A stretch of DNA of 62,682 bases, filler included, from Stramenopiles sp. TOSAG23-2 (lineage: Eukaryota): assembly GCA_900128395.1 (NCBI GenBank). It is 7 parts of 7 records of this genome, joined end to end, with 100 filler letters (N's around TTAATTAATTAA, not from the genome) between each part and the next. Parts side by side here need not be neighbours in the genome. Positions count along the whole stretch, not along the records: positions 47,716 to 59,506 come from LT649898.1; 6 more parts are not named here. The stretch is one strand, 5' to 3'. Position numbers and translations under genes: made by a program. Under the pieces are notes generated by a model. It had not been told where the DNA came from and searched no databases. It saw nothing but the letters and a program-made list of their open reading frames with translations. Every line of letters starts with the position of its first letter. Within the stretch, counting starts at the first letter, position 1. This document shows, piece by piece, positions 11,961 to 54,249 of this stretch.

Positions 11961-11964
11961 CATA

Positions 11965-13865: not shown

Positions 13866-14518
13866 CGTAATTATTTCTGAATCTATATATCAAGTCATTT
13901 GTTTTTCTCTTGGCTAGCATGTATCCGATACACTAACCTATATGTACAACTATATCGAATTATCCATCAAAACAATAGATATCTTTTTTATTGCGCAGAG
14001 GATTGGCGGATTTAGATTGGCAGCATTATTTTTTTGATCATTTTTTCGAAGATTTCACAGTGCTATCCAGGCTATCAAATGACCCTGAATTATACTTGAC
14101 AGGGTAATTAGAATACGAATTTAGATTGTCTGCCTTCGGTTTTTATCGGCCTCTTTTCAGTTAAAAAAATATTCTGTGTGTCCTGTGACGCAAAAAAAGT
14201 TCTGTCCGCCTGTGTGTGGCAACTGTGTGTGTTGTGTCCATGGTAAATATTATTTGATTTTGTGTTCTGTTAGTCGCTACTGCAATTTCTTTGCAATATG
14301 GTAAATCAAAAACCTACAAGGGACATACCATTAAATATCTTTTAACTTCTCCCTGTTTTAACGAACGTACTTATGAAAAACATATATCTATACCCTTCCA
14401 CAGAAAACATACTGTACTGTAGGTATAGATGAAAGAACAATATTTGAAAACAAACAATAGATCGTTGTTTTTGGTATTACATATATATAGATATTTATAA
14501 CAGAAATAGTATATAAAT

Positions 14519-15679
14519 ATGAAGCAACGATATCAAGCATTTTCGTATATAATAATAGCATTTGCTTTGCAACAAATTAAAACAACTTATGCTACTGATA
14601 ATGGCAATGTAAACTATGGCACGGACCCATTGCTACAGCTGGAGGTAGATAATAATGGAAATACGCTGAACAATAATAATAATAATAACAACAATAAAAA
14701 TGGGAACAAGAATAAAATTGACGATAATAGCTCTGCTACGAAATTGTTAAAGAAGAACTATTATGATAATATTGAATTAATTCCGCAAGTAATATCAACA
14801 CAACCACGTGTGACATATTATGAGAACTTTTTAACAGATGACGAATGTGAATATTTTAAAAATAAGGCTCCTGAACTCGAAGATTGGGATGATACTCGTA
14901 GTTACACGTCTGTTTATTTTAAAGATAGTGCATTTTACAACAACGAGATGGTAAACAAAATTGAATGGAGAATTGCAGGAATAACGGGAATCATGCCACA
15001 TTATGATCAAGAAGCATTGTGTATACATAAAATAAAACCAGAGCCTGATATCAATAAAAAAAGATTAGATAATATTCATCATGATAAAGCAAATAAACCT
15101 TGGACGACTGTCACTGTTTTGATGTATTTAGCTGATACGGAATTAGGAGGTGAAACGATATTTCCATGCAATTTGAATCAATCTACTTCGAATTTATGTA
15201 GACGATCATTTAATGGTAGAGCTCGATGGCATAATGGTAAACGTACCGTTGTTGAAGGTGTCATTCATTATACGGGGGAAAATAACAATGGGAAAAAATC
15301 CAAAGTCGAAAAAGAAATGAAAAAATTAAGAGATATAACATCAGATCTATGTGCAGAAACATATACGTCTTTAAAAGATAATAATAATGATGATATGAAT
15401 ACAGAACAATTAGCGGAATCCGTTAGTCAAAATGTAGAATATCTTAGTTCTGTGACAAAGCATGGCCAAGGTGCTTTAAAAGTTAAGCCAAAGAAAGGTA
15501 GTGCCATTATGTTTTGGCACGATAACGTTGGGTTTTCAGGTTTAGGTGTTGGTGATCCATTGGCTTGGCACACTGGTTGTCATCCTTATACAGGTACGAA
15601 ATGGACCATGCAAAAATTTAGTGAAGTACCTATGAGTACAAGGCGTGAGATACGTATGACACGACGAGTAAAAAAATAA
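14519..15679 (+). CDS. Secreted/ER prolyl 4-hydroxylase-like 2OG-Fe(II) oxygenase
   Basis: Signal peptide, PRVTYYENFLTDDEC, HHD (HxD), TVLMYLADTELGGETIFP, VKPKKGSAIMFW, WHTGC..GTKW. Confidence 0.88.
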   Translation: MKQRYQAFSYIIIAFALQQIKTTYATDNGNVNYGTDPLLQLEVDNNGNTLNNNNNNNNNKNGNKNKIDDNSSATKLLKKNYYDNIELIPQVISTQPRVTYYENFLTDDECEYFKNKAPELEDWDDTRSYTSVYFKDSAFYNNEMVNKIEWRIAGITGIMPHYDQEALCIHKIKPEPDINKKRLDNIHHDKANKPWTTVTVLMYLADTELGGETIFPCNLNQSTSNLCRRSFNGRARWHNGKRTVVEGVIHYTGENNNGKKSKVEKEMKKLRDITSDLCAETYTSLKDNNNDDMNTEQLAESVSQNVEYLSSVTKHGQGALKVKPKKGSAIMFWHDNVGFSGLGVGDPLAWHTGCHPYTGTKWTMQKFSEVPMSTRREIRMTRRVKK

Positions 15680-16106
15680 CATGTTTTACCGACACACGTG
15701 TTTTTTTTTTATTATTCACGGCTCACATGTAAGCTTTGATATTTCATGTCAAAAAGAATTCTTTTTTGTTCATATGTGTGCGGTGTGATTTATATACGAG
15801 TGAGCTCGTATAAAAAAATTTTGATAAACTTTTCTCGCTTTAATTTAAACTTTTGATATATATATATAATTTTATTAATAATATATAATATCATACGAGT
15901 ATATATACTTCGTATATGTTTGTAATGAATAAGAGAATTCTCGTATATATAATATGTACTCGTATGTATTATAATAAAAAAATAAGCGAATTATTTTATG
16001 ATATATATTATCATATATATGAGTAAGAGAACATTTTATATATATATATGTACAACAAGAGCATGTTCGTAAGTAAATAAAAAAGCAAAACACAGATTGC
16101 ACCTCC

Positions 16107-16988
16107 CTACAATTTTGCGGTTAGATTAAAATCATGATCCTCTGGATTTTTTATATATGGCAATGGATTTTCTTTTCGTATGATCTTCAATTTTTCTTCA
16201 ATTTCTTTACTTGAAAATTTATACAATTCTGCCATATTCAATCTTCCAAGATTTTTAGCCTTTATATCTTCTTCCTCGTCATCATTATCAACTTTTGGCC
16301 TTTTAATTGAATCCAACATTTTAACAGAATACGTATCGTTATTAAATATTTTGAATTCCATTATTCTCATTTCACAATTTTCAAAACCATGTAACATTTT
16401 TTCTTTATCCATCATTGTAATTTTTTTATTTTTATCTGTAAACAATGATTGACCCATAAAGCCTGCATGGGAAACACATGCAATTATTTTTTCATTTCGA
16501 CTAGATATGAATTTTAAAAATTTATTTGCACGGTCAATACTATTTTGACGCGGTTCTCTGTTCAATCGCCATAACATATCTTTTCCACTAATTTGTGAGA
16601 AATCAAAATATGGGTATTCTTTTGAAACAATTGAACGATTACGTCTTTGTTCACATGGAAAACGTCCATGACGTTCTCGTAATTCTTCTACTACTAAAAA
16701 TGTCTTTTTTTTTAAATGATTTTGAAATACTAACGAAGCTGTTTTCAAAGTACGTGAACATGGAGAAACACATATTAACTCTGGCGTCATTATTTTTGGT
16801 CGTTTTAATATTTCTTCATATAATGACCTTGCTTCTTGTATACCACGATCAGATAAACGAGAATCACGAAATTTTGTAGCATACATTGTCAATACTTCAT
16901 CTCCACTTAATTTTTTTTCTTCTAACGATAAATTATGTGATGACTGGCCATGCCTTACAAAATATAATATTTTCGTATCTTTTAACAT
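16107..16988 (-). CDS. Histidine phosphatase (phosphoglycerate mutase-like), C-terminal PTS1-like AKL
   Basis: VRHGQSSHN, SPCSRTLKTA, LRE, VSHAGF, FENCE. Confidence 0.9.
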   Translation of the reverse strand: MLKDTKILYFVRHGQSSHNLSLEEKKLSGDEVLTMYATKFRDSRLSDRGIQEARSLYEEILKRPKIMTPELICVSPCSRTLKTASLVFQNHLKKKTFLVVEELRERHGRFPCEQRRNRSIVSKEYPYFDFSQISGKDMLWRLNREPRQNSIDRANKFLKFISSRNEKIIACVSHAGFMGQSLFTDKNKKITMMDKEKMLHGFENCEMRIMEFKIFNNDTYSVKMLDSIKRPKVDNDDEEEDIKAKNLGRLNMAELYKFSSKEIEEKLKIIRKENPLPYIKNPEDHDFNLTAKL

Positions 16989-17460
16989 GTTTAAATGATT
17001 ATAAATTTTATTAAATTTTTCAATTGGTATGATTACATTCCAAGCTATATTACTTAATATATATGGTTATACGTATGCGTGTGTATTTTTAATTTCTTCC
17101 GTGTAATATTCTATGTTTTAGATGTTAAATTTTCTTTAAAATAATTGTTCCACATTTTAGACGACTATCTATCTATTGCCTTTAAAGTTTTATATTCCCA
17201 CATGTTAGACGGTCTAATTTTATTAAGAGTCAATGTGATTGCGGTGTGTTGCATTCTGGCATTCTAATTCTGGCATTATTAACCAGGTTGACATTAAATA
17301 TAAGAGAATTTGATGTGACTGTTTTTACGGATATTTTCCAATTATTATGTCCATGTAACTTTTTGTCATTTTAGTACTTTACTTAAAATTTTTATATAAA
17401 TTTATTTAAATTTTGCACCACACACCACACCAAACAAATTTATATATAAAAAAAAAGTTT

Positions 17461-17874
17461 TTACAAAATTTTTTTCATCTCAGTTTCCACATTATTTATC
17501 AATTCTCTATCAAAACAATTTTCTTCGCAAAGTGACGCTTGTTTAAATATTTTTTTACTAGTTTCATAATCTTTCAAATTAAGATACGCTTTTGTTAACA
17601 AATACAAAGCCGTAGAATCCGTAGGATCTAATGTAACAGCTGCACCTAATGCTATTGAAGCATTTTTGTAATCTTTTATATTAATAGAGCTAAATTTGCT
17701 GCACCTTGCACTTCGTGTTTCATTTAATGTACTATTAAGTAATGAATGCATTTCCGATTCAATAAAAGTTAACTCGTTAATATCAACGCATAAATGTCCA
17801 TATTCTTTTGGTACGTTATTTTCAACGGCTGTAGTCATTTTTTCTTCCTCAGCCATCTTCACTGCTTCACAATA
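17461..17874 (-). CDS. Last exon of a TPR-containing protein (5' part lost at the palindrome axis)
   Basis: TPR pattern YKNASIALGAAVTLDPTDSTALYLLTKAY; the frame stays open up to a (TA)nAG acceptor-like site. Confidence 0.65.
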   Translation of the reverse strand, partial: YCEAVKMAEEEKMTTAVENNVPKEYGHLCVDINELTFIESEMHSLLNSTLNETRSARCSKFSSINIKDYKNASIALGAAVTLDPTDSTALYLLTKAYLNLKDYETSKKIFKQASLCEENCFDRELINNVETEMKKIL

Positions 17875-17890
17875 CTATATATATATATAG

Positions 17891-18304
17891 TATTGTGAAG
17901 CAGTGAAGATGGCTGAGGAAGAAAAAATGACTACAGCCGTTGAAAATAACGTACCAAAAGAATATGGACATTTATGCGTTGATATTAACGAGTTAACTTT
18001 TATTGAATCGGAAATGCATTCATTACTTAATAGTACATTAAATGAAACACGAAGTGCAAGGTGCAGCAAATTTAGCTCTATTAATATAAAAGATTACAAA
18101 AATGCTTCAATAGCATTAGGTGCAGCTGTTACATTAGATCCTACGGATTCTACGGCTTTGTATTTGTTAACAAAAGCGTATCTTAATTTGAAAGATTATG
18201 AAACTAGTAAAAAAATATTTAAACAAGCGTCACTTTGCGAAGAAAATTGTTTTGATAGAGAATTGATAAATAATGTGGAAACTGAGATGAAAAAAATTTT
18301 GTAA
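17891..18304 (+). CDS. Mirror copy of the TPR exon
   Basis: Reverse complement of 17461-17874. Confidence 0.6.
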   Translation, partial: YCEAVKMAEEEKMTTAVENNVPKEYGHLCVDINELTFIESEMHSLLNSTLNETRSARCSKFSSINIKDYKNASIALGAAVTLDPTDSTALYLLTKAYLNLKDYETSKKIFKQASLCEENCFDRELINNVETEMKKIL

Positions 18305-18776
18305 AAACTTTTTTTTTATATATAAATTTGTTTGGTGTGGTGTGTGGTGCAAAATTTAAATAAATTTATATAAAAATTTTAAGTAAAGTACTAAAATGAC
18401 AAAAAGTTACATGGACATAATAATTGGAAAATATCCGTAAAAACAGTCACATCAAATTCTCTTATATTTAATGTCAACCTGGTTAATAATGCCAGAATTA
18501 GAATGCCAGAATGCAACACACCGCAATCACATTGACTCTTAATAAAATTAGACCGTCTAACATGTGGGAATATAAAACTTTAAAGGCAATAGATAGATAG
18601 TCGTCTAAAATGTGGAACAATTATTTTAAAGAAAATTTAACATCTAAAACATAGAATATTACACGGAAGAAATTAAAAATACACACGCATACGTATAACC
18701 ATATATATTAAGTAATATAGCTTGGAATGTAATCATACCAATTGAAAAATTTAATAAAATTTATAATCATTTAAAC

Positions 18777-19658
18777 ATGTTAAAAGATACGAAAATATTA
18801 TATTTTGTAAGGCATGGCCAGTCATCACATAATTTATCGTTAGAAGAAAAAAAATTAAGTGGAGATGAAGTATTGACAATGTATGCTACAAAATTTCGTG
18901 ATTCTCGTTTATCTGATCGTGGTATACAAGAAGCAAGGTCATTATATGAAGAAATATTAAAACGACCAAAAATAATGACGCCAGAGTTAATATGTGTTTC
19001 TCCATGTTCACGTACTTTGAAAACAGCTTCGTTAGTATTTCAAAATCATTTAAAAAAAAAGACATTTTTAGTAGTAGAAGAATTACGAGAACGTCATGGA
19101 CGTTTTCCATGTGAACAAAGACGTAATCGTTCAATTGTTTCAAAAGAATACCCATATTTTGATTTCTCACAAATTAGTGGAAAAGATATGTTATGGCGAT
19201 TGAACAGAGAACCGCGTCAAAATAGTATTGACCGTGCAAATAAATTTTTAAAATTCATATCTAGTCGAAATGAAAAAATAATTGCATGTGTTTCCCATGC
19301 AGGCTTTATGGGTCAATCATTGTTTACAGATAAAAATAAAAAAATTACAATGATGGATAAAGAAAAAATGTTACATGGTTTTGAAAATTGTGAAATGAGA
19401 ATAATGGAATTCAAAATATTTAATAACGATACGTATTCTGTTAAAATGTTGGATTCAATTAAAAGGCCAAAAGTTGATAATGATGACGAGGAAGAAGATA
19501 TAAAGGCTAAAAATCTTGGAAGATTGAATATGGCAGAATTGTATAAATTTTCAAGTAAAGAAATTGAAGAAAAATTGAAGATCATACGAAAAGAAAATCC
19601 ATTGCCATATATAAAAAATCCAGAGGATCATGATTTTAATCTAACCGCAAAATTGTAG
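18777..19658 (+). CDS. Mirror copy of the histidine phosphatase
   Basis: Translation identical to 16107-16988. Confidence 0.85.
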   Translation: MLKDTKILYFVRHGQSSHNLSLEEKKLSGDEVLTMYATKFRDSRLSDRGIQEARSLYEEILKRPKIMTPELICVSPCSRTLKTASLVFQNHLKKKTFLVVEELRERHGRFPCEQRRNRSIVSKEYPYFDFSQISGKDMLWRLNREPRQNSIDRANKFLKFISSRNEKIIACVSHAGFMGQSLFTDKNKKITMMDKEKMLHGFENCEMRIMEFKIFNNDTYSVKMLDSIKRPKVDNDDEEEDIKAKNLGRLNMAELYKFSSKEIEEKLKIIRKENPLPYIKNPEDHDFNLTAKL

Positions 19659-20085
19659 GGAGGTGCAATCTGTGTTTTGCTTTTTTATTTACTTACGAAC
19701 ATGCTCTTGTTGTACATATATATATATAAAATGTTCTCTTACTCATATATATGATAATATATATCATAAAATAATTCGCTTATTTTTTTATTATAATACA
19801 TACGAGTACATATTATATATACGAGAATTCTCTTATTCATTACAAACATATACGAAGTATATATACTCGTATGATATTATATATTATTAATAAAATTATA
19901 TATATATATCAAAAGTTTAAATTAAAGCGAGAAAAGTTTATCAAAATTTTTTTATACGAGCTCACTCGTATATAAATCACACCGCACACATATGAACAAA
20001 AAAGAATTCTTTTTGACATGAAATATCAAAGCTTACATGTGAGCCGTGAATAATAAAAAAAAAACACGTGTGTCGGTAAAACATG

Positions 20086-21246
20086 TTATTTTTTTACTCG
20101 TCGTGTCATACGTATCTCACGCCTTGTACTCATAGGTACTTCACTAAATTTTTGCATGGTCCATTTCGTACCTGTATAAGGATGACAACCAGTGTGCCAA
20201 GCCAATGGATCACCAACACCTAAACCTGAAAACCCAACGTTATCGTGCCAAAACATAATGGCACTACCTTTCTTTGGCTTAACTTTTAAAGCACCTTGGC
20301 CATGCTTTGTCACAGAACTAAGATATTCTACATTTTGACTAACGGATTCCGCTAATTGTTCTGTATTCATATCATCATTATTATTATCTTTTAAAGACGT
20401 ATATGTTTCTGCACATAGATCTGATGTTATATCTCTTAATTTTTTCATTTCTTTTTCGACTTTGGATTTTTTCCCATTGTTATTTTCCCCCGTATAATGA
20501 ATGACACCTTCAACAACGGTACGTTTACCATTATGCCATCGAGCTCTACCATTAAATGATCGTCTACATAAATTCGAAGTAGATTGATTCAAATTGCATG
20601 GAAATATCGTTTCACCTCCTAATTCCGTATCAGCTAAATACATCAAAACAGTGACAGTCGTCCAAGGTTTATTTGCTTTATCATGATGAATATTATCTAA
20701 TCTTTTTTTATTGATATCAGGCTCTGGTTTTATTTTATGTATACACAATGCTTCTTGATCATAATGTGGCATGATTCCCGTTATTCCTGCAATTCTCCAT
20801 TCAATTTTGTTTACCATCTCGTTGTTGTAAAATGCACTATCTTTAAAATAAACAGACGTGTAACTACGAGTATCATCCCAATCTTCGAGTTCAGGAGCCT
20901 TATTTTTAAAATATTCACATTCGTCATCTGTTAAAAAGTTCTCATAATATGTCACACGTGGTTGTGTTGATATTACTTGCGGAATTAATTCAATATTATC
21001 ATAATAGTTCTTCTTTAACAATTTCGTAGCAGAGCTATTATCGTCAATTTTATTCTTGTTCCCATTTTTATTGTTGTTATTATTATTATTATTGTTCAGC
21101 GTATTTCCATTATTATCTACCTCCAGCTGTAGCAATGGGTCCGTGCCATAGTTTACATTGCCATTATCAGTAGCATAAGTTGTTTTAATTTGTTGCAAAG
21201 CAAATGCTATTATTATATACGAAAATGCTTGATATCGTTGCTTCAT
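20086..21246 (-). CDS. Mirror copy of the P4H-like oxygenase
   Basis: Translation identical to 14519-15679. Confidence 0.85.
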   Translation of the reverse strand: MKQRYQAFSYIIIAFALQQIKTTYATDNGNVNYGTDPLLQLEVDNNGNTLNNNNNNNNNKNGNKNKIDDNSSATKLLKKNYYDNIELIPQVISTQPRVTYYENFLTDDECEYFKNKAPELEDWDDTRSYTSVYFKDSAFYNNEMVNKIEWRIAGITGIMPHYDQEALCIHKIKPEPDINKKRLDNIHHDKANKPWTTVTVLMYLADTELGGETIFPCNLNQSTSNLCRRSFNGRARWHNGKRTVVEGVIHYTGENNNGKKSKVEKEMKKLRDITSDLCAETYTSLKDNNNDDMNTEQLAESVSQNVEYLSSVTKHGQGALKVKPKKGSAIMFWHDNVGFSGLGVGDPLAWHTGCHPYTGTKWTMQKFSEVPMSTRREIRMTRRVKK

Positions 21247-21899
21247 ATTTATATACTATTTCTGTTATAAATATCTATATATATGTAATACCAAAAACAA
21301 CGATCTATTGTTTGTTTTCAAATATTGTTCTTTCATCTATACCTACAGTACAGTATGTTTTCTGTGGAAGGGTATAGATATATGTTTTTCATAAGTACGT
21401 TCGTTAAAACAGGGAGAAGTTAAAAGATATTTAATGGTATGTCCCTTGTAGGTTTTTGATTTACCATATTGCAAAGAAATTGCAGTAGCGACTAACAGAA
21501 CACAAAATCAAATAATATTTACCATGGACACAACACACACAGTTGCCACACACAGGCGGACAGAACTTTTTTTGCGTCACAGGACACACAGAATATTTTT
21601 TTAACTGAAAAGAGGCCGATAAAAACCGAAGGCAGACAATCTAAATTCGTATTCTAATTACCCTGTCAAGTATAATTCAGGGTCATTTGATAGCCTGGAT
21701 AGCACTGTGAAATCTTCGAAAAAATGATCAAAAAAATAATGCTGCCAATCTAAATCCGCCAATCCTCTGCGCAATAAAAAAGATATCTATTGTTTTGATG
21801 GATAATTCGATATAGTTGTACATATAGGTTAGTGTATCGGATACATGCTAGCCAAGAGAAAAACAAATGACTTGATATATAGATTCAGAAATAATTACG

Positions 21900-22491
21900 A
21901 TGGCAAGTTTAGTAACAGATAATGAAACGAAACAAGCACCGGAAGTCACGACAGACGAAACAGGGTATAGTAGTTTAACTAAATTTCACAGTACAAATCA
22001 AATAATTAATAATAATAATAATAATAATGATAATAATATTAATATGAAACAACAACCATCAATGTCTTCACAACAAAATAATCTTGTAAATTTAGCAGCA
22101 TTGACTATTCGGATACCATCTGTTACATTGATAGCAGATAATTTCGCTGCATATAAAATTGTTATTGCGGATGGTAAACAGAAATGGATAGTATTTCGTA
22201 GATATTCTTCTATATTAAAATTTCATACAGATTTAGTTAGATTTGCTCCGGAAGCTTTGGACGTCCTACGTTTTCCTAAGAAAAAAATGGTTTGGCAATA
22301 GACAACCAAATTATTTAGAAAAGCGGAGAAGCCAGTTAGAATTATATTTTCGAATGTTACTAAATTCAAATTTGCCTAGATCAAAAGCTTTAAAAGAACG
22401 TGTATTTGCTTTCTTCTCCCGTTCAGATCCAGTAATTGAAAATAGCATTATATTTACTTCGATTAAAAGAGAGGAAGGTAATGAAGATTAA
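21900..22491 (+). CDS. Mirror copy of the frameshifted PX-domain gene
   Basis: Same A7 run at 22281-22287. Confidence 0.75.
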
Positions 22492-22786
22492 TAATATTTT
22501 ATAAATTTATTTTACGTCCGTATCCGTATAATATATTCATACCCCCCTCTACCTCGAGCCCCACACCGCCTGATAAATGATTTTTGTTGTATTTAATTAC
22601 ATTATACGTAATGATACTAGAGTATTAATACTAGATAGAGTGCTAGTAGGAAAGGGAGGACAGACAGAGAGAGAGAGAGGAGATTTTAGTAACAAAATGT
22701 CGTATCTAAATGGAAAAAAGTAATATATAATAATATATATATGATATGATATGAATATGATATGTGAATACGAAAAATATTTTATA

Positions 22787-23800
22787 TCATACGATCCCCA
22801 ACTCCTTTGATAAACTTTGTTCCATTCTTCTCATAGCATTCAATGCAACAATTTGATGTTCTAAAAATGGAGTCTTGCCTTTTGGATTCCCATCTGGTCC
22901 TTTTGTCCTACAAATATGATTATTTAATATAAATAAATGGCTACATAAATATGCTTTTGCACTTGCTGGATAATTAATACATACAGTCGCTTCTGCAAGA
23001 GATAAGAAATCTTGAACCTTTTGTAGTTGTTTTTCTTTTATCACCTTATCATCCCCACCATTATTACTATGTACATTAGCATGTTTACACAACCATACAT
23101 GCAATTGTGGATAAAAATTTGCAGAAATTCCAGAAAAACCATGACCACCATCACGAAGTGACGTCAAAAGTGTCTCTACATTTGCATTGTAAAATCGAAA
23201 ATTTGTATGTTTAGATACCGCTTTCACTTTTGCTTTGATTTCAGTGGATAAACATGACGTATCTTTATGAAAATAAAATCTATTTGTTGCAGCACACCAT
23301 TCAATAAGATCAGGGGATAATAATCTTTTATAAGGGACTGGACATTCATATAAACCTAATTTAACATTTCCAGTAAGTGATAAAATGGTCTCCATTGCGG
23401 TTTTCCATTCAATTTCACTTGATTCTTTAGGAACAAGTGTAGATGTATTGATGACAACCGCGTCACAATATTTAGACATTTCATTGATAAATTCACCTTG
23501 TTCCTCAATAGTTTTACCATCATATGTTCCAGTGCTTACAACAACGATACGACCATTCACTTTGGTAAATATATATTTCGCTAGTTCTAACCGTTCACTA
23601 GATGACAAATCAAACATTTCAGAAGATAAACATGGAGAAAATATACCAACACATCCCTTACCAATATAAAAATCTAGTAATCCATCAATTGCATTATAAT
23701 CAATTTCAATATTATTATTATTATCAATGAATGGAGTAATCATTGTTGGAATGGCACCAATCGGAAATAAAACGCCATTGTTAGTATTTATTGATGCCAT
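22787..23800 (-). CDS. Mirror copy of the DHDPS-family gene
   Basis: Translation identical to 11965-12978. Confidence 0.85.
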   Translation of the reverse strand: MASINTNNGVLFPIGAIPTMITPFIDNNNNIEIDYNAIDGLLDFYIGKGCVGIFSPCLSSEMFDLSSSERLELAKYIFTKVNGRIVVVSTGTYDGKTIEEQGEFINEMSKYCDAVVINTSTLVPKESSEIEWKTAMETILSLTGNVKLGLYECPVPYKRLLSPDLIEWCAATNRFYFHKDTSCLSTEIKAKVKAVSKHTNFRFYNANVETLLTSLRDGGHGFSGISANFYPQLHVWLCKHANVHSNNGGDDKVIKEKQLQKVQDFLSLAEATVCINYPASAKAYLCSHLFILNNHICRTKGPDGNPKGKTPFLEHQIVALNAMRRMEQSLSKELGIV

Positions 23801-23804
23801 TATG

Positions 23805-23904
23805 NNNNNNNNNNNNNNNNNNNNNNNNNNNNNNNNNNNNNNNNNNNNTTAATTAATTAANNNNNNNNNNNNNNNNNNNNNNNNNNNNNNNNNNNNNNNN
23901 NNNN
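23805..23904. other. Artificial contig linker
   Basis: N44-TTAATTAATTAA-N44. Confidence 0.99.
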
Positions 23905-29478: not shown

Positions 29479-31089
29479 TCAAGCAAAACTTTCCCCCACC
29501 ATTTCTATCTCATGCAATAAAAAATCTAAATCAGTTTTCTCTACTCTTGGTTGATTTATAATTATACGAAAAAAATTTGGTAAATCATGATGACCGTCCC
29601 TTAAAGGGTTGTAGCAACATAATGCATAGCCACGTTTTTGCATTTTATAATAAATCGCTTCATTTACTTCATGTAATGTATTGTAAATAATGCTCTCATT
29701 ATTATTAGCAACATGTTCAATAGGATTAAAACCACCGTTGCAAAATTTTTCCATTTCAGGCTTGATTTCAGATCTGATTTTTGAAGGAACATACCAAAAG
29801 CAAATATTCAAATACATTGGGTCCTCAACTAATAAAAAGGTATTTTTTCTTATCGTGCGTTTTATAATTTCCTCTTTAAAATATTTTGCATTTGCAAATG
29901 CTTTATTAATACGTGTTTCATATCCATATACACCATGATATTTCCAACTCAACCATATCTTTAATGAATCTGCTCGTCTTCCACATTGTAATGTTTTATC
30001 ACCTAAATCATATTCCGAAGCCTCATGTTCATGGAATAAATATTCGGCGCCACTAGAATTAGATTCCTCTAACAATTTCAAATGATTATTAATTAACAAT
30101 ACAGAGCAATAAACTGGGATGCCCATTGTTTTATGAGGATTCCAAACGATTGAATCACATAATTCAGCACCATTTAACAAATATTTATATTTTGTTGACA
30201 TACATACACTTCCTCCCCAACATGCATCAATATGGAACCAACATTTATATTTTTTACATAGCCTAGCAACTTCTATAAAGTTATCGAATCCACCCATGAC
30301 AGTTGTACCGGCAGTTGCTGAAATAAAAAAAGGTATTTTACCATTCACATCAACTGCTTGCTGCAGTTTTGATTCTAAATCACTAATAATCATGCAACCT
30401 TTACGATCTGTTTTCACTTTGATGCAGTTATTCATGCCAAACCCAGCAATCATTGCTGCGCGTTTGATGCTATAATGTGATTGTGAACCAGTCAAACAAA
30501 TTGCATTCATAGGATTACTCCATCCATTCAATTTGACTGTTGAAAATTTATAATGTCGCGCAACTATTAATGCAGTTAAATTTGATTGAGATCCACCAGG
30601 GTTTAAACATCCATCTACCCTTTCCAAATCTTTGAATCCAACCAGTTTCGCCATAGCTTTAATCACTGCACGTTCCATTGTTGAATATACAGGTGCGACT
30701 GCATATGTATGACAATTGGTATTTGTGACAGATATTATTAATTCAGAAATTTGCCCAATTATATCTGATCCTGCATATAATTTATCAAAAAAACGTGGGT
30801 GTGATGTACGAACTGAATATTTCAAAACATTTTCTACTATTTTAGATACTTCTACTAGTGTTACATTACTCTTAGAATTAGATGTTGACAATGGAATATC
30901 TAAAGTTTCTATTAATTTATTTGGATGTAAATATTCAATAACTTTTGTCGTTTCAATTCCATTTTCCAACAAATACTTCTTAATAATTGGCATGATTAAT
31001 TCAAATAATTTTTCCATCTCGTTCACTTCATTTTTATAATCTTTTCGCACATCATATTTTGTCATTGATATTGTTGCCATGCTTGTCAT
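29479..31089 (-). CDS. Group II PLP decarboxylase, GAD/CSAD/GADL1-like
   Basis: YSVRTSHPRFFDKL, PGGSQSN, SHYSIKRAA, ATAGTTVMGGFD, HIDACWGG, WNPHK (PLP Lys), GDKTLQCGRRADSLKIW. Confidence 0.93.
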   Translation of the reverse strand: MTSMATISMTKYDVRKDYKNEVNEMEKLFELIMPIIKKYLLENGIETTKVIEYLHPNKLIETLDIPLSTSNSKSNVTLVEVSKIVENVLKYSVRTSHPRFFDKLYAGSDIIGQISELIISVTNTNCHTYAVAPVYSTMERAVIKAMAKLVGFKDLERVDGCLNPGGSQSNLTALIVARHYKFSTVKLNGWSNPMNAICLTGSQSHYSIKRAAMIAGFGMNNCIKVKTDRKGCMIISDLESKLQQAVDVNGKIPFFISATAGTTVMGGFDNFIEVARLCKKYKCWFHIDACWGGSVCMSTKYKYLLNGAELCDSIVWNPHKTMGIPVYCSVLLINNHLKLLEESNSSGAEYLFHEHEASEYDLGDKTLQCGRRADSLKIWLSWKYHGVYGYETRINKAFANAKYFKEEIIKRTIRKNTFLLVEDPMYLNICFWYVPSKIRSEIKPEMEKFCNGGFNPIEHVANNNESIIYNTLHEVNEAIYYKMQKRGYALCCYNPLRDGHHDLPNFFRIIINQPRVEKTDLDFLLHEIEMVGESFA

Positions 31090-31617
31090 TTTCCATATGG
31101 CAGAAGAAAAAATGTATAATCGAATTGTGGAATAAATTAATGCATTATCTAAATATCTATTATGTGCCATATACAGAGGTTATTATTTGAAATTATTTAT
31201 ATATTAATATCATTTTTTCATCAGGAAGAAGTAAAGTGTTTTGCTTTTGTTGTGCTTTTCGTACCTGTAGTACTCTTTTTACCGACTTACCGACCTGTTG
31301 TTGTTGTGCCAGGTATTATAGTATTAATAGATCAGAGAATGGAAATATATGTATATAAATATGTCATATATGATATAATATAAATTATTTTAAAAACATT
31401 GGCACATTTTGGTATTTATTAAAATATTTAATAATATAAAATATATATATATATTTTAATATATATATATTAAATATATACAAGCGCATTTGTATTAAAA
31501 CAACTTGGTAATTATACCCCATCATCAAAATATACATATCTCTACACATTTAAGTATCTCAATTATTATCACAATCTTCGCACACTATTATATCATACTT
31601 CGTATTTATTTTCTTCT

Positions 31618-37100: not shown

Positions 37101-37402
37101 AATGCGTATTGTATTTCTTTTATACGTATATATATACTTCCCAAGACTTATTTTTTCATTTTTTTTCTCCATCACATTAAGAATAAGAAGGTATTTATAT
37201 TTTTATCTACTATACTATATAATAACGTGTTGTTATTGTATAATTTAAATTGTGTCGGATGGGTTAGAGTTAGAGTGAGCTGGTGGTGAGTATAGTATAG
37301 TATATTTATATATAGTATATATATATATATAGTATTATATATTAAAATTATATTAATGATAAAATACGGCAAAAGCTCGAAATAAGGAGGAAGTAATTGC
37401 AA

Positions 37403-38080
37403 TCATTTTGGGTGGCCGGCGGTTTTTGTTTCTTGTGTTTCATATGTTTCAATAAATCTACGACCATAATCTTCTGTGAAATCATTATGTACGCTTTGAA
37501 TTGGGCCAACAGCAACATTAAAGACTTTGGCTAAAGGGTTCGTCTGCCCAGATTGTCGAAACAGTGAGTTACCACAAAACGTATATGCTGCACCAGTAGC
37601 TTTTTTAACTACTTCTTCAATTTCATTTAAATATTTTGCATTACGTTCCTCTTGATCTTCCCAATTTACAACACTTGAAGGGTGTTTAGCCAAGATAAAA
37701 CCATTTGTATTTAATGACGGATTTGTTAATAAACGTGCATTATTTACATCTTTCTTTTTAGTAACAGTTATTACAGCATTTCGTTTCTCTCTACTAATAA
37801 TAGCATTTTTTAAATCATCAATAGCATTTGGGACTTGAGCAAACATGGACATAAATAATTTAAATCCATTTGGTGAACGGACTGCATTTTCTGTCGAAGC
37901 AGCTGCATCTTGTTCTTTTTTCCTCCGTTGTTGAATGAGCTGTATTACTTTTGGTTGATATTTAGCCAATACTTCTTGTACAACATCTTTTTCCATGTTA
38001 TATTTTTTCTCTGTTTCAGTGGGATTTAATAATAATTCCCGAAAAGCTGGAGAGCGATAATTAAATAAACCAGTCGTCAT
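37403..38080 (-). pseudogene. 3'-truncated CmcJ/NvfI/AsaB-family oxidoreductase-like gene
   Basis: NARLL..SLNTNGFIL.KH, YLNEIEEVVKKATGA, VHNDFT; the ORF ends inside a 55-bp repeat and lacks the C-terminal half typical of the family. Confidence 0.6.
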
Positions 38081-38285
38081 TCTTTTTTTTAAGAAAAATA
38101 AATTTCAAATGATGATATGTTTGTACAAACGAATTTAATATACTTTAAAATATAACCTATAAGATTGTTCTTTTTAAAAATTCGTACATATATTTTGTTT
38201 TACACATGAAATTGTGCAATTATATAAATATAATTTAATTTACGCATGAAATTATAAATATATACTTCGTCCTATAATAATATAA

Positions 38286-47615: not shown

Positions 47616-47715
47616 NNNNNNNNNNNNNNNNNNNNNNNNNNNNNNNNNNNNNNNNNNNNTTAATTAATTAANNNNNNNNNNNNNNNNNNNNNNNNNNNNN
47701 NNNNNNNNNNNNNNN
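47616..47715. other. Artificial contig linker
   Basis: N44-TTAATTAATTAA-N44. Confidence 0.99.
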
Positions 47716-47787
47716 ATTCCTTATATTGATTTCCGTCTTTAAAAAATCCCGTTATGCCCCGGTCATCATCGTGGGAGTTCTCAATTC

Positions 47788-47819
<32 letters not shown>

Positions 47820-47852
47820 GAAGTAATATTTTTTTTTTACAAAAAACCTTTT

Positions 47853-48311
47853 TTATGTTTCAGTTGAAATGACTTCAATATCACCTTCCAGATCCTCATC
47901 CTCATCAATGCTACCGCTATTATCATTACTATAATAGTCCTCACTACCGTTACCTTGGGATGGTGGTGGTGATGGAGTTTCATTACTACCATTATCATTT
48001 CCATCAATTATTTCATCACCATCTTCATATTCTTCTATTCCATCTTCATCATATTCTGATTCTTCATCTTCGTCCGTTTCCTCTGGAGGATTTGGGATTC
48101 TCGTATCATCTCCAAATTTTTTAATCGAAATAAATTTGATAGACAGTTTACCTTTTCCTTTATTACCATTTTTCTCCATCAAATTGTATTCCTTTACAGT
48201 ATTTCGATCTTGCTCTATAAAATCATGTATAAACTCATGATGATTAAATTCATGCATTGTAATTAATATTGCCACTATTACATTATACCATCTCATGTTT
48301 TGTATGTAATT
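47853..48311 (-). CDS. Probable terminal exon of an intron-containing gene with an acidic C-terminus
   Basis: Open frame preceded by a TTAATAG acceptor-like site; D/E-rich tail; upstream exons not resolved. Confidence 0.45.
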   Translation of the reverse strand, partial: NYIQNMRWYNVIVAILITMHEFNHHEFIHDFIEQDRNTVKEYNLMEKNGNKGKGKLSIKFISIKKFGDDTRIPNPPEETDEDEESEYDEDGIEEYEDGDEIIDGNDNGSNETPSPPPSQGNGSEDYYSNDNSGSIDEDEDLEGDIEVISTET

Positions 48312-48825
48312 CTATTAACTGATAATAATATATATGTATTCTAAAGCTACCAATGTATATTATTTTCTGTCTTCAATGTTTCTTTGCCATCTGTCTTATT
48401 ACTTTTTGTAAATGAATCTGCATGTATTACAAAAATACATATTATTAAATGTGTGTTTTATTATTATTAATATAAGTTTTGTATAGGACGACTAAAATAA
48501 TTTAACGGCACAAAATTTCCGAAATATTATTTACGTACTTGCTAGACTACGTTACATTGGATATTGTACATTAGGTCTTGTGGATTGTGGAATAATTTTT
48601 GGAAGTACTCGTAGTTGTAAAAAAGAAAATGCAAGGGGAGAGAGTGATAGATAGTTTTTGGTTTTCATCTGGGGGAGTGTTATGGATATATATTTTATAG
48701 AAATGTATGATACACGGTACATAAGATTCTTCCTTATTAGGGGGAGCTTTTTCATACATTATTTTTTTTTTAATATATATATTATTTTTTTTAATATTTT
48801 ATTTTAAAAACATTTTTTACTTTTC

Positions 48826-48872
48826 TTCTATTCCACTTTTTCCTATTCACAGGTTTCAAAAGCGTATATCAT
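48826..48872 (-). promoter_or_regulatory. Candidate form-II SECIS element
   Basis: ATGA-TATACGCTTTTG-AAA-CCTG(TGAA)TAGG-AAAAAGTGGAATA-GA, about 130 nt downstream of the stop of the multi-TGA ORF; helix I is weak. Confidence 0.5.
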
Positions 48873-49000
48873 CTCTTCATTTTTTTCTATCTCTCACAAA
48901 CATTTGAAAATGCAAAAGCACAAAATGTTTATTACGTACAAAATAGTAAATGATATATAAAAAATATTTCCAAAAACAATCGTTCATATAATAATTACAT

Positions 49001-51046
49001 TTAATGATGTCCACGTTGCAATCTTTTAATATCTGCTCCACAATATCCTTCAATGACATTTTTTAAACTACCAGATAACATGAAAATAATAACAAAAATT
49101 GCAACTGGCATACCATAAGCAAATAATTCACATGCATTGCCATCTCTATCAATTGGGCAATCACAAAAACAATCAGAAGTGCATGTATTTGTTCCATTGA
49201 TAATTGAAAAACTAGTACCTGAACAACTAGTATACCCCCCGCATATTAAATGATTATTAGGATCAGTTGGGCATGATGCGTATAATGGTTTTGGATGTAT
49301 TACTGGTTGGATAAAATAAGCCAACACCAACACACCAACACTCATGATCAATGTCAAAAATACAGTCAATAAATTCAAATCTCTTGCTTTTTTAATTATC
49401 ATCATTCTCCTATATTCATCTAAGATGAGAGTTGAGACATTATCCAATGATTTTTCATCGCCATTCATTCCTTTCATCAATGATAAATTACCATTTGTAG
49501 TCCCCCAAGCTTCAGTAGGGCTACGACCTTGCACACCTAAATTGATTCACATCTTTGCTTTAGCTTGTAGACCCATCATTAATGCCATTAAAGCTGGGAA
49601 AACACCAAAAATTTTCCACCAAAATTGTGCATTAGTGAAAAGCAAAACCAAATTAATTACAACAGCTATAGCACCCGCTCGGTTTCTATAGCGCATCATT
49701 CTCGCTTCAGTTGCATCAGATGCAGTTGTCATGGAACAATCTGATGGAATTTCCACTTGATCTAAAAGAGTGGAGCGTTTAATAGGCTTTTGCTCGGTTT
49801 CATTTTTACTTTGCATTACGTAGCTACCTTTCAATTTCTTTTCATCTTTGCTATTTCTTTTTTTAGTTTCATTGCTATTGGTAGTATCATCAGATTGTCA
49901 AGATCCATCGCAATTAGGGTTTTCTCATCCACTTTTCCTTTTTTTTCCCCTTTTCTCATCAACATTACGAGATGATAAAATGGAAGGCATTGGTTTTAAT
50001 TTTTTCTGTTTTTTTGGTCTATTTCACGATCCTTTTTTGGCCATCGTTTTTGCAGATGGCATACTAAATGCTGACATCAAACCACCAAAGGTTGAACTGC
50101 GCGATGAATCTGTTCTACCTCATGCAGATGAAGCAGAGCTTCTAGCACTATCAGATGTTACACCACCATTATTATTATTTCCATATTGATCGGTTATTTT
50201 ATTGAAGTTTAAATCTGGTACATTGTTTCTGGATAATGGAATTTCCCCTTGTTGCAATTGTAAATGTTGTTGTCGCATTTGTTCTTGTTGTTGGTGCACA
50301 TACAATTTTCGTTGATTCTCTCTATTTTCTTTTTCTTTCAAATATTGTAGATATTGTGCACTTTTTCTATTGTTAACATTATCATCGTTGTCGATTTTGT
50401 TATAATTAATATTTGTAATATTATTACTACGTTTCAGTGCTTCTATTCCATTTAAAATCAAAATTCGATCTCCAATAGCACGTATATTCATATCTCCTAA
50501 ATCAGCCTTTGTTAACGATCCTAAAACTTCGCCATTAATATTATTTTCAAACATGATTTCTTGATAGTTTGGAAAACCTATATAACCAATCCAATCTGCC
50601 ACATCTTCTATTGACCAATAATTTAAATTTTTTGGTAAATTTAACTCTTGTATTACATAACGTCTACGGTGTTGTAGAACTTTATATTTTTGACGCTTTT
50701 TTTCATATTTTTGGGATATTATAGGTTGTTGTTGTTGTATTTGATGCATATTATTTGGATATCCATAGTTGTAGTTGTTCTTCTTCTTCTTATTATCATT
50801 GTGATAATCACTTAATTGTCGTTGATGTTTATTAATATTATGTTCCACCAAAGAATCAGCAGGTAATAATTTTCTTTTCTTATTCAAATTATTATTATTA
50901 TTATTATTCGTTGGCAATTTCTGTTCCTCTTCCTCTACAACATTAATAATTGTTTCATTCTTTACCGAGTTAGTATCCGTCGTTATTGATTCATTCTTAA
51001 TGATGGGTGGATCCACATCCTCATTTTCTCTTTCTTCCTCCTCCAT
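49001..51046 (-). CDS. SAM-domain / multi-TM / EGF-like protein, 681 aa with five in-frame TGA (candidate selenoprotein)
   Basis: ORFs 50120-51046, 49547-49834 and 49001-49534 share one frame. The only internal stops are TGA at 50120-22, 50024-26, 49925-27, 49898-900 and 49547-49. SAM: WSIEDVADWIGYIGF..NINGEVL..IGDRILIL. Confidence 0.75.
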
Positions 51047-51320
51047 ATCACTACTAGCTAGCTAGCTCTAGCTACTTCACGCAACAAAATAAGTAGTTGT
51101 TGTAGGAAGTTACTATGGTGGAATAGATGATAACTGTCGTCACAAGTAGATACAAATATTATGTACATATGATTTACTTTTACTCTCTCCACTAACTAAG
51201 TAGATACAAATATATATATTTTTGTAAATATAATTGTAGCACTGTAGTATGTAGTATATTGATAAAAAAAAGTTCGTTGGGGCATAAGTATTTTTAAAAT
51301 TAACACCACACAGCATCGGT

Positions 51321-51428
51321 GGGCACGCGAAACTGAGCGTGACCGGGCACGCGAACCGTAGGCTGGTAGGTACAGTAGCTCTAGCTAGGAGCTACGCCCT
51401 ATCATGTGGGTTTAGTCCTGGCCGTATA
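51321..51428. repeat. Second copy of the GC-rich dispersed element seen at 26173-26345
   Basis: AAACTGAGCGTG and TACGCCCTATCATG(TG)GGTTTAGTCCTGGCCGTATA. Confidence 0.8.
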
Positions 51429-52056
51429 CTGTACTACTGTTGGACAAAGGAGCCGCCTGTCGTCTTTTAAAAAAGTATACTCATAAGACTAGATCATACC
51501 GTACTCAAGCAGACGAATGTGAGCGAGGCACGATTCGTACGTAGATATGATGAGGAGACGAAAGAGGTAGTATAGATGCATTGGAGAAGAGATGAAAGAG
51601 AGAGAGAGAGAGAAAACGGTGTGTGTATAGTTAATACGGAGAACGGACTTTTGAAAAACGTACAAAGTGTGTGCGTGTGGTGTGGTGTCAATATGTGTGT
51701 ATAAGGCAATACATTTGCAAAAGAGTTTTGATTTTCAGTGTCTGTGTGTAAATAGTGGGTGTGTGGTCTTTCGCGTTTATATATCATATATTGGTGTGCG
51801 GTGTGTTGTTTAGTTCACGTATATAAATATAGCTCAGGATTTGCATATTATCGTTCATGTATTTTCCGAAAGACTAATCAAAAAACATCATTGCTATATA
51901 AAATATGTGAAATATGTATATATATATATCTAGAATCTTGCCATGTTTATTCCCACAGATTGTGTGTAAGAATCGTTTCGTTCAGAGGCATTCAAATGTA
52001 CAATAAACAATCAAAAGCGATTTTTTGTTTTTTTTGAAAGAATTTCGGTTTTATCT

Positions 52057-52415
52057 GTCCTCAGAGAATTCGCCAAGTAAGTGTGTATGTCTCTACAATA
52101 TTCTTTTTATTTCAAAAGCATATTTCAGTAGCAGAATTGAATATAAATATCGTCACAGGAAGATTTACTTTCTTTCTTTCTTTCTTTCTTTCGCTTTTGA
52201 TGTATATCGTACATAATCTACGCATGAACATCTACATGTAGGTGAACTAATAGATGAGTAGCCATATATATATATATACATAAGATATAATTTTGTCATG
52301 TATGTGATTGCAATTCAAATTATATTAAAAAGTCCTCAGAAGAATTCGCCAAGTAGTTGTATTATCTCTACATGTTTCTTTCAGTAGCAGAATTGAATAT
52401 AGTTTCGTCACAGGA
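52057..52415. repeat. Diverged direct repeat (52057-52160 vs 52332-52415)
   Basis: Shared blocks GTCCTCAGA-GAATTCGCCAAGTA, TTTCAGTAGCAGAATTGAATATA, TCGTCACAGGA. Confidence 0.8.
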
Positions 52416-52578: not shown

Positions 52579-54249
52579 TTATTTTTCTTCTTCCTTGCAT
52601 TGGAAAAAATCACCATGAATACCAAAACTCATTAAATGTTTCCAATCATCTTGACAATATAACGTCGATATTGTTTTCATCGATTTTGCATCGATAATAG
52701 CAAGATAAGTAGCACTTTTTATTCCGTCATAAACAGATGCTAAAATAACACCATCATCTTCAGCTAATCCATTACCAGGTTTTTGAACGAATATTGGTTC
52801 GCCTGGGAAATGACCTTGAACAAACCACGGAATTACATTACTAATACTATCATCAGCATTAGTATCATCATTAATATTATTACATACATCTACTTTGATC
52901 AATGCAGTGTCAGCAAAGTGATTTGATCCAGCTGCATGTGGAGCCCATCCATACCAATAACAACTTGTTTCTGTACTTTTTAAACCATTTATACGAGGTA
53001 GTTCGACGGTTGTGTATAATTTACCACTTGCATCTATCAATGGTGTCATGGTATAATTGACAACAAGCGACGACGACTTGATTCTCTTATTATTTATACT
53101 TTCATCAGGTATAGGTATTTCATATCTTCTATATTCAGCAGTTCCAACTAATTTATCACGTATGGATGTATTTAACATGTTATGTATTGTTAAGCCAGAC
53201 GATGGTACCAGACCGCTGGTCATATTATTTGCTAAAACATCCATGTATATCTTATTATTTGCTTCAAATCCATTTATATGATGGAAGGCAAAAAAAGCAT
53301 CAGCTTTATATTCAGTTACTTTCTTTGTTTGTAAGTTAATTACATATAATGCAGTACCATCTTCTGGACTCCATTTTAAAGAATTCATCACAGGTTTTGC
53401 TGCCATAATATTTCCAAGTTCCCATGTAAATGGTGCAGCAGCTAAGATGGCATAATTTTTAGTAACGGTGAAACTATGTATATATGGTAATTTTTTCACT
53501 TTAATAGTTGCCAACTGTTCACGTGTATTTGTATGTTGATTTACACGATAGACAATTATTGAATGTTTACCAATGCCAACAATAGCAACTGGATTTATAC
53601 GCATGACGAAATTAATTGTATCACCACTTGGTAATTGTTGCGGATGCGCTGCAGTAATTTTATCAAAATAATTTGTCCACGTATCGTTCCATTTATGTTC
53701 AATCGTCGTCATATCTTCTAAATTTAATATTTTCCCCGCACCTTTATTTGATGTATAATCACTTGTTAAAACAATATTCCCAGCAATATCAACTACATTG
53801 ACATTAAAATTGTCAGTGCAATTATCTGTCATTGCTTTTGCGTTTGATTCATGTGGCACCGTAGTACCAAGTAATCTAGACGGACATATATCCCCACTAT
53901 TAACAGATACATTGTAAAAATTTGAACGTAAAAAGTTTGCACGTAAAGAGACAGTACCCCCCTTTGTAAACTTATATCGTAAAAGTTTTCCAAAACCATC
54001 AAATGTATGAGTTAAATGTCTGGTATGTTCTTCAAATTTACTAGCACTTTGCCTTACATACGAACCACATAACCACGTTGGCACGGTGCCATCATTTGGT
54101 TTCAAAACAGTTTCTTCTAAAACTTCAGCAGACGAGGTTGTAAATACACCAGCAAGTGGATCTGTTGTTGTTGTTGCTGCTGCTGACGCAAATGTTATTA
54201 TTAATACTACTATCAACAATATATGTTGTTGTAACAGTAAACTATACAT
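52579..54249 (-). CDS. Carotenoid cleavage dioxygenase (BCO/RPE65 family) with N-terminal signal peptide
   Basis: HTFDGFG, four Fe-ligand His motifs (TAAHP, YIHSF, FHHIN, FGIHG), ELPRIN, GEPIFV, EDDGVIL. Confidence 0.93.
   Translation of the reverse strand: MYSLLLQQHILLIVVLIITFASAAATTTTDPLAGVFTTSSAEVLEETVLKPNDGTVPTWLCGSYVRQSASKFEEHTRHLTHTFDGFGKLLRYKFTKGGTVSLRANFLRSNFYNVSVNSGDICPSRLLGTTVPHESNAKAMTDNCTDNFNVNVVDIAGNIVLTSDYTSNKGAGKILNLEDMTTIEHKWNDTWTNYFDKITAAHPQQLPSGDTINFVMRINPVAIVGIGKHSIIVYRVNQHTNTREQLATIKVKKLPYIHSFTVTKNYAILAAAPFTWELGNIMAAKPVMNSLKWSPEDGTALYVINLQTKKVTEYKADAFFAFHHINGFEANNKIYMDVLANNMTSGLVPSSGLTIHNMLNTSIRDKLVGTAEYRRYEIPIPDESINNKRIKSSSLVVNYTMTPLIDASGKLYTTVELPRINGLKSTETSCYWYGWAPHAAGSNHFADTALIKVDVCNNINDDTNADDSISNVIPWFVQGHFPGEPIFVQKPGNGLAEDDGVILASVYDGIKSATYLAIIDAKSMKTISTLYCQDDWKHLMSFGIHGDFFQCKEEEK

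Follow-up and report, generated by a model that had tools for sequence, protein, structure and literature searches.

The DNA analysed here, called the window throughout, is a stretch of 62,682 nucleotides from Stramenopiles sp. TOSAG23-2 (GenBank assembly GCA_900128395.1) in which seven parts are joined end to end, and the subject of the analysis is a probable selenoprotein gene on the minus strand of one of them, its own contig at 47716-59506 (LT649898.1). A minus-strand frame runs there from an ATG at 51046 to a TAA at 49001 over 681 codons, and its internal stops are five TGA, with no TAA or TAG. The first bases of the TGAs lie at 50122, 50026, 49927, 49900 and 49549 (codons 309, 341, 374, 383 and 500), in the contexts SASSA-U-GR (309), KKGS-U-NRP (341), KSG-U-ENPN-C-DGS-U-QSD (374/383) and KAKM-U-INLG (500), where U marks the UGA codon, read as selenocysteine (Sec). 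The single 681-codon frame with its five TGAs, coordinates and contexts, claimed in a first-pass annotation of the sequence, was reproduced throughout by translation, as was the remark that only one of the UGAs is followed by C, which is that of codon 383. Under genetic-code table 11 the gene breaks into three open reading frames (ORFs; 50120-51046, 49547-49834 and 49001-49534), and reading TGA as a residue restores a single merged ORF of 681 amino acids. Given the base composition of the window, the probability of 681 codons free of TAA and TAG is 1.6e-18. Codon-usage log-odds of the six stretches between the TGAs were 0.33-0.47 bits per codon in frame, inside the range of 24 reference ORFs of the window (0.14-0.50) and above both off-frames.

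These 24 other ORFs (150 amino acids or longer; 11,227 codons, 138 TGG) include complete proteins of 1603, 1183 and 1045 amino acids with normal domain coverage, and their stops are TGA in 11 cases, TAA in 12 and TAG in one, which bears out the earlier statement that TGA is a normal stop elsewhere in the window. The absence of in-frame TGA from this set follows from the way the set was constructed. Six other window frames that are long only through TGA read-through were rejected; they had no Pfam match, and the sequence past their TGAs looks non-coding.

Relatives were sought by a scan of metagenome DNA, using a second query alignment (A2), the first (A1) being too divergent for patterns, and six loci (L001-L006) were recovered. 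L001-L003 come from the same species in three other, independent assemblies (98-100% identity), and carry the identical five TGAs in the same frame. The others are more distant: L005 (GC content 0.43) is a whole gene with 39% protein identity and five in-frame stops, all TGA; L006 (GC content 0.49) is cut at its 3' end, with 42% identity and six in-frame stops, all TGA; and L004 covers the C-terminal part at 40% identity, with one in-frame stop, the TGA of codon 500. No in-frame TAA or TAG is present in any of these three. The sixth in-frame TGA of L006 (1478-2767) stands at STA-U-GK, and gives its cluster the form U-x6-U-x3-U.

In an alignment of these sequences (A5), the columns of codons 309, 341 and 500 contain TGA for each species that they cover, and L005 and L006 share TGA in two more columns. 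Five columns hold only TGA and six only TGG, and none of these 11 mixes TGG with TGA; among 12 Cys columns TGA occurs in none, and TGT and TGC are mixed in 7. Because no column of A5 mixes them, TGA is not synonymous with Trp or Cys codons in this family. Between L005 and L006, whose synonymous sites are saturated (synonymous divergence, dS, of 1.3-1.5), all five L005 TGAs pair with an L006 TGA. The ratio of non-synonymous to synonymous divergence (dN/dS) for this pair was 0.22 over L005 codons 168-312 and 0.25 over codons 314-489, and 0.18-0.25 3' of the first TGA, at dS >1. Within the species the counts are small: the window and L003 differ by 15 synonymous and 12 non-synonymous changes (omega 0.19), and comparison with L002 gave an omega of 0.40 overall and 0.49 in codons 310-499, likewise from small counts; these values tend in the direction of the comparison between species. 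The comparison of TGA sites in homologues and the dN/dS estimate past the TGAs, both proposed in the first-pass annotation, came out in favour of its reading, with relatives at 39-42% identity keeping TGA and never having a Trp, Arg, Gly, Ser or Cys codon there, and with purifying selection rather than neutral evolution of the downstream sequence. Since the TGAs are kept as TGA and the sequence downstream is under purifying selection, they are held by selection and translation must run through them. The locus is not a pseudogene.

The predicted proteins of metagenomes carry the mark of the same codons. In a phmmer search against 1.84 billion representative proteins there were 296 matches at E<=0.001, and among the best 150 of these, which were listed, no protein crosses codon 309 or 500. 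Two relatives (P0127, 70% identity, and P0135, 46%) stop exactly at codon 309, ending in ...DSARS(S/I)ASSA; four (P0130, P0136, P0154 and P0262; 92, 61, 43 and 35%) break off just before codon 500, at query residues 497-499; and two (P0123, 69%, and P0129, 37%) begin at query residue 501 or 502, so that fragments ending or starting at these two codons span 35-92% identity. A profile search for the C-terminal part among 5.8 billion proteins brought up 19 members, with lengths of at most 177 amino acids. All of the latter and the fragment relatives derive from metagenome sources, with no named organism among them; the protein search found no full-length homologue at near lengths, and no relatives were found in GTDB prokaryote genomes or IMG/VR. 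In every metagenome source searched, gene callers present each gene of this kind as at least three separate 'hypothetical proteins'.

A second, GC-richer subfamily (P0167, P0200 and P0305-P0311) has a shorter Cys-rich module resembling epidermal growth factor (EGF), CSGRGACPGVNGTVCxCPIEWEG. Five of its nine ORFs (P0167, P0305 and P0308-P0310) begin M(A/Q)AG..., aligned to residue 501, just past the equivalent of codon 500, and the other four begin a few residues downstream of residue 501. As the ORFs of this subfamily start at or after residue 501, the break at codon 500 seems, from these sequences, to be family-wide.

The six loci (24 kb, both strands, thus 48 kb) were scanned with Rfam (4227 families; E<=10), and nine matches were returned, of which two were to SECIS_1, a model of the selenocysteine insertion sequence (SECIS). 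These are on the sense strand of L004 (617-679; 31.9 bits, E 0.0086) and L005 (2495-2558; 24.9 bits, E 0.71), 40 and 44 nt 3' of the respective stop codons, and so occur in both relatives with a readable 3' untranslated region (UTR). Each hairpin folds alone into the canonical shape, with helix I, an internal loop, a 10-bp helix II, AAA and an apical mini-stem. The hairpins share 85% identity and are homologous, with pairing in 28 of 28 cells of the common structure and compensatory changes on both sides of three pairs; with two sequences only, this is illustrative and amounts to no statistical test. Since the E-values cover 4227 families and 48 kb, matches at the place expected of a SECIS are very unlikely to be products of chance.

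The read-through protein was compared with Pfam over its whole length (E<=0.01), and matched only SAM_2, SAM_1 and SAM_PNT, and no selenoprotein family. SAM_2 scored 47.1 bits (cut-off 20.5) and SAM_1 (PF00536) 41.4 bits (cut-off 23), and the closest solved domains are the polymerising SAM domains of diacylglycerol kinase delta (DGK-delta) and Shank2/3 (E 9e-7 to 1e-6). Residues 420-681 were modelled with AlphaFold2 (mean predicted local distance difference test score, pLDDT, 66; predicted template modelling score, pTM, 0.52), and the hydropathy peaks are consistent with the helices of the model, in which the second helix of the hairpin traverses Sec500. The hairpin motif FWWK(I/V)FGVFPA is kept in L005 and L006, and the cysteines C592, C602, C608, C628, C630 and C639 of the Cys-rich module are invariant in 9 sequences. 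No EGF family matched in Pfam at E<=0.01, an EGF chain appeared in Foldseek as a weak match (E 2.4, probability 0.41), and Foldseek gave no match against the PDB at E<=0.001; connexin rows in the same output (E ~1, TM-score ~0.25) were set aside as not meaningful. Of the domain order in the first-pass annotation, the succession of SAM domain, hairpin, transmembrane (TM) helix, Cys-rich module and TM helix is largely upheld by Pfam, hydropathy and AlphaFold2, and the EGF assignment stands on the Cys pattern.

Between the SAM domain and the hairpin lies a linker whose motifs DSARSxASS-U-G, LPxIxSSR and VEIPSDCS are kept across species. Three Sec or Cys fall within ~10 residues between the latter two motifs in each species, in differing order: U-x4-C-x3-U in the window, U-x4-U-x2-C in L005 and U-x6-U-x3-U in L006. 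This suggests exchange of Sec and Cys within the cluster, in a region where the MAFFT alignment is unreliable. Besides the cluster order, the only hint of such exchange is one TGA/TGT pair in a gap-rich pairwise alignment, and A5 contains none. The first-pass annotation had likened U-x4-C-x3-U to a Cys-type motif; the three Sec or Cys per species, in differing order, lend this weak support, in a region that aligns poorly.

The coordinates of these features, and of others in the window, are collected in Table 1.

Table 1. Features of the window, with strand and the basis or character of each
Feature	Position	Strand	Basis or character
Complete coding sequence	49001-51046	-	681 codons + TAA stop; five in-frame UGA
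SAM domain	50432-50623 (residues 142-205)	-	Pfam SAM_2 (PF07647), E 2.8e-12
UGA codon 309	50120-50122	-	Inside conserved motif DSARSxASS(A/G)-U-G; TGA column: window, L005, L006
UGA codon 341	50024-50026	-	Basic linker, KKGS-U-NRPKK; TGA column: window, L005, L006
Sec/Cys cluster U374-x4-C379-x3-U383	49898-49927	-	Translated frame
Hydrophobic helical hairpin	49532-49717 (residues ~444-505)	-	AlphaFold2 helices 25-51 and 56-86 of model; hydropathy peak 457-475
UGA codon 500	49547-49549	-	Abuts 3' side of helical hairpin, GLQAKAKM-U-INLGVQGR; TGA column: window, L004, L005, L006
Juxtamembrane helix + TM helix 3	49298-49417 (residues 544-583)	-	AlphaFold2 helix 125-164; hydropathy peak 559-577; has LILDEYRRM
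Cys-rich EGF-like module	49130-49273 (residues 592-639)	-	Cys pattern; beta-hairpins in AlphaFold2 model
TM helix 4	49040-49114 (residues 645-669)	-	AlphaFold2 model + hydropathy
Candidate SECIS, hand-found	48827-48872	-	Begins 128 nt past TAA; by eye + energy scan
RPE65-type carotenoid oxygenase	52579-54249	-	Intronless ORF
GAD-like pyridoxal phosphate decarboxylase	29479-31170	-	Intronless ORF
EF-hand/DUSP/UCH deubiquitinase, 1603 aa	4817-9628	+	Intronless ORF
Axonemal dynein light chain	9966-10664	-	Intronless ORF
Six rejected TGA read-through frames	37148-38128, 60109-60954, 11262-11783, 13396-13917, 47754-48266, 51759-52241		No Pfam match

Spacers of 44 N + TTAATTAATTAA + 44 N stand at 47616-47715 and near 11861, 23805, 35717, 59507 and 61095, ~11.9 kb apart; they lie between joined contigs, and gene neighbourhood across a spacer is therefore not genomic. 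A perfect palindrome at 11861-23904 consists of two arms of 6,022 nt each (11861-17882 and 17883-23904), 100% complementary with 0 nt between them, and mirrors three ORFs; it looks like an amplification or assembly chimera, not biology. Upstream of the gene, 51300-51400 on the minus strand contains GC-rich repeated words (gcgtgccc...cgcgtgccc) and gctagctag runs within AT-rich intergenic DNA. In L001, the 1.5-kb intergenic region upstream of the gene, toward the RPE65-like ORF, holds three weak matches in a row to C/D-box small nucleolar RNAs (snoRNAs) of Rfam (2949-3032, 3208-3311 and 3472-3544; snR61/Z1 at 33.7 and 27.3 bits and snoZ223 at 22.8 bits, all under gathering), which could form a snoRNA cluster. 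The organism is regarded as flagellated because the window encodes an axonemal dynein light chain. An identical copy of the GAD-like decarboxylase and a relative at 81% were found in metagenomes only; its best named matches are from choanoflagellates (41-42% identity), the one hint at taxonomy that the analysis gave.

A 2.4-kb stretch was found wholly or partly in 20 of 24 listed sequencing runs, with at least half of the sampled words in 17 of them. Six are RNA runs (poly-A, oligo-dT and cDNA metatranscriptome), which contain shares of 0.29-0.55. The runs containing the stretch, many of them marine DNA runs, belong to 15 studies, and one run may be the source. Given this presence of the organism in marine DNA and RNA across 15 studies, the family may be of importance to selenium use among marine grazers.

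Taken together, it is highly probable that all five UGAs are decoded as Sec in a SECIS-dependent manner, producing a membrane protein of 681 amino acids. The conservation of the TGAs, the purifying selection downstream of them and the SECIS_1 matches in L004 and L005 support gene-specific insertion of Sec, as the first-pass annotation had argued; in the window species itself the inserted residue is inferred to be Sec.

Several results weigh against this reading. The Rfam SECIS models gave no match in the window at the gathering threshold, none at E<=10 over 47800-51400 (3.6 kb) or 48780-48900 (121 nt), and none at E<=10 in L001-L003. A covariance model (R1) built from the SECIS of L004 and L005 also had no match at the right place in the window species; its best window match, at 12413-12489 with a palindrome twin (15.1 bits, E 0.17), lacks the UGA core and was rejected. 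The L004 and L005 matches themselves fall short of Rfam's gathering score (35), and the core of L005 reads AGGA in place of the expected AUGA, which would be non-canonical if functional; GGGA-type SECIS cores work in Toxoplasma. A candidate SECIS was found by hand past the stop codon of the window gene, with AUGA (48872-48869), 12 nt, AAA, a 4-bp apical mini-stem, a 7-bp helix II and GA (48828-48827), the spacing of 12 nt from AUGA to AAA being that of L004 and L005. Its helix II is extended by 3 bp across an internal loop, which itself is unfavourable. Folded over 71 nt the candidate reaches -6.7 kcal/mol (z -2.1; 11 of 200 shuffles fold as well), and among the ATGA..AA..GA sites of both window strands it comes 3rd of 35, but 17th of 124 under looser rules, a moderate standing; a strict energy scan (>=9 helix-II pairs + closing pair) missed it. 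An alternative SECIS starting from the ATGA 14 nt past the stop would need a non-canonical apical region of ~68 nt, and was discarded. No tRNA was found in the window. On the protein side, no Cys-form homologue was found among the proteins searched, and four of the five Sec lie in a poorly conserved, probably disordered linker and not in a thioredoxin-like redox motif.

Part of this evidence would suit a different use of the same codons, namely programmed read-through of the UGAs by a standard amino acid (Trp, Cys or Arg, inserted by a near-cognate or suppressor tRNA), the hairpins of the relatives being coincidental or serving another purpose. Such read-through would agree with the want of a model-supported SECIS in the window species, with scores under gathering in the relatives, with recoded residues mostly in disordered linker, which is unusual for Sec, and with the contexts GS-x-N and SG-x-E, which would suit Trp too. 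A TGA meaning Trp or Cys should, however, swap with TGG or with TGT/TGC over dS >1, and no column mixes them; five or six read-through events in series would multiply the inefficiency; it is very unlikely that chance would place two homologous SECIS_1 matches just where a SECIS is expected; and TGA ends 11 of 24 neighbouring ORFs. We consider standard-residue read-through improbable for these reasons.

Still less probable is termination at codon 309, by which the gene would encode a SAM protein of 308 amino acids, and the segments downstream would be separate small proteins or belong to other transcripts. The gene callers of all sources do break the locus at the TGAs, and in some relatives (such as L005 and the P0167 type) a Met lies right past the stop at codon 500. 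Against this, the pieces lie in a common frame in each of the species, no start is provided by codon 501, which reads ATC in the window and TTA in L004 and L006, the linker at 310-430 keeps its motifs and TGA positions with no possible start, and internal cistrons are unexpected in a eukaryotic mRNA. The idea of a pseudogene, an assembly error or a lineage-wide reassignment of TGA we find scarcely credible. The contigs do come from an assembly with amplification-type artefacts, such as the perfect 6-kb palindrome, but the same TGAs recur in four assemblies (the window and L001-L003) and in divergent species, there is neither a TAA or TAG nor a frameshift, and dN/dS is well under 1. Lineage-wide reassignment was rejected on the TGA stops of 11 of the 24 ORFs, none of which has an in-frame TGA over their 11,227 codons, and on the TGA columns, unmixed with TGG or Cys codons; RNA editing, short in-frame introns and pseudogene decay were likewise rejected on TGA conservation, dN/dS and normal use of TGA as a stop.

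With the UGAs decoded as Sec by the eukaryotic SECIS-dependent recoding pathway, one predicted intronless gene would produce a four-helix membrane protein of 681 residues. Its cytosolic N-terminus would carry the SAM domain of polymerising type, followed by a probably disordered basic linker with Sec309, Sec341 and the Sec374/Cys379/Sec383 cluster; the helical hairpin would come next, with Sec500 at once after it, then the juxtamembrane helix and TM3, and a putative extracytosolic EGF-like Cys-rich module would be held between TM3 and TM4. The positive-inside rule would put the SAM domain, the linker and all five Sec on the cytosolic side. Most likely, by analogy, the protein would function as a SAM-oligomerised membrane scaffold, whose flexible cytosolic Sec segments may bind a soft metal, or else sense redox equivalents or pass them on. 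At low selenium, UGA309 could remain undecoded and give a soluble product of 308 amino acids containing only the SAM domain. We propose tentatively, and with considerable doubt, a wider picture in which these genes would form an undescribed Sec-obligate family of marine flagellates, a single SECIS near the stop would drive processive decoding of 5-6 spaced UGAs, Sec would be placed in cytosolic linkers instead of a thioredoxin-type site, and the supply of selenium would decide at UGA309 between a soluble SAM-only form and the full-length, membrane-anchored one.

To our knowledge, many-Sec proteins are rare outside SELENOP, and in nearly all known eukaryotic selenoproteins Sec belongs to a thioredoxin-like redox motif and relatives in Cys form exist. 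SELENOK and SELENOS are membrane-anchored, with Sec in a disordered cytosolic segment and not in a thioredoxin fold, and are the closest analogy for the mode of action proposed here, in which Sec would also sit in a flexible cytosolic segment. Both are single-pass proteins with one Sec near the C-terminus and neither a SAM domain nor an EGF-like module, and no Pfam match to them was obtained. SELENOP is a secreted protein with a thioredoxin-like N-domain, a Sec-rich tail and two SECIS. The present protein, unlike SELENOP, combines a SAM domain with four hydrophobic helices, and one SECIS match was found per relative; in the Pfam scan of the whole protein (E<=0.01) neither the SelP N-terminal domain (UxxC, thioredoxin-like) nor the C-terminal Sec-rich domain was detected, and an identity as SELENOP was rejected on this ground. 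Like SELENOP, it has several UGAs in one mRNA; many in-frame UGAs of SELENOP are decoded through a 3'UTR SECIS, with termination at an early UGA able to yield truncated isoforms (PMC5727441, PMC5133445).

The one named family that may remain as a possible identity is MSP ('membrane selenoprotein'), found in Dictyostelium, Chlamydomonas, Volvox and Ostreococcus, and described in the portions consulted of its sources as a predicted membrane protein with two Sec that exists almost only in the Sec form (PMC2375036, PMC7539508). Going by these descriptions, both are predicted membrane selenoproteins of unicellular eukaryotes with more than one Sec and a nearly exclusive Sec form; the present family has five or six Sec against the two of MSP, a comparison made by description only. 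Decoding of several, even adjacent, UGAs per mRNA is on record in the text of PMC7539508 for algae and protists, in PDI_e (GUGUU), the 2-Sec SELENOW, SELENOJ and SELENOL. In those proteins Sec is part of thioredoxin-fold redox motifs and Cys-form homologues exist, whereas here the Sec are scattered along ~190 residues of the linker and of membrane-proximal sequence, and the searches turned up no Cys form. According to the same text, some accepted selenoprotein families are Sec-only, and no SAM-containing family is among the family names it gives, supplementary 'Hypo' lists apart (PMC7539508).

The SAM scaffolds DGK-delta and Shank resemble the protein in one domain, and neither is a selenoprotein or bears this membrane part. 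In the literature consulted, mostly abstracts, no description was found of a multi-Sec membrane selenoprotein with a SAM domain or an EGF-like module; this, together with the restriction of Pfam matches to SAM families, agrees with the view of the first-pass annotation that the architecture is undescribed. If true, the reading would widen the known uses of Sec, with 5-6 Sec in linker and membrane-adjacent positions, no Cys form found and apparently one SECIS, and would offer a natural system for processive multi-UGA decoding. Set beside the known systems, the recoding mechanism is the established one; what appears to be new is the family itself, how many Sec it carries and where they sit, and its lack of Cys forms.

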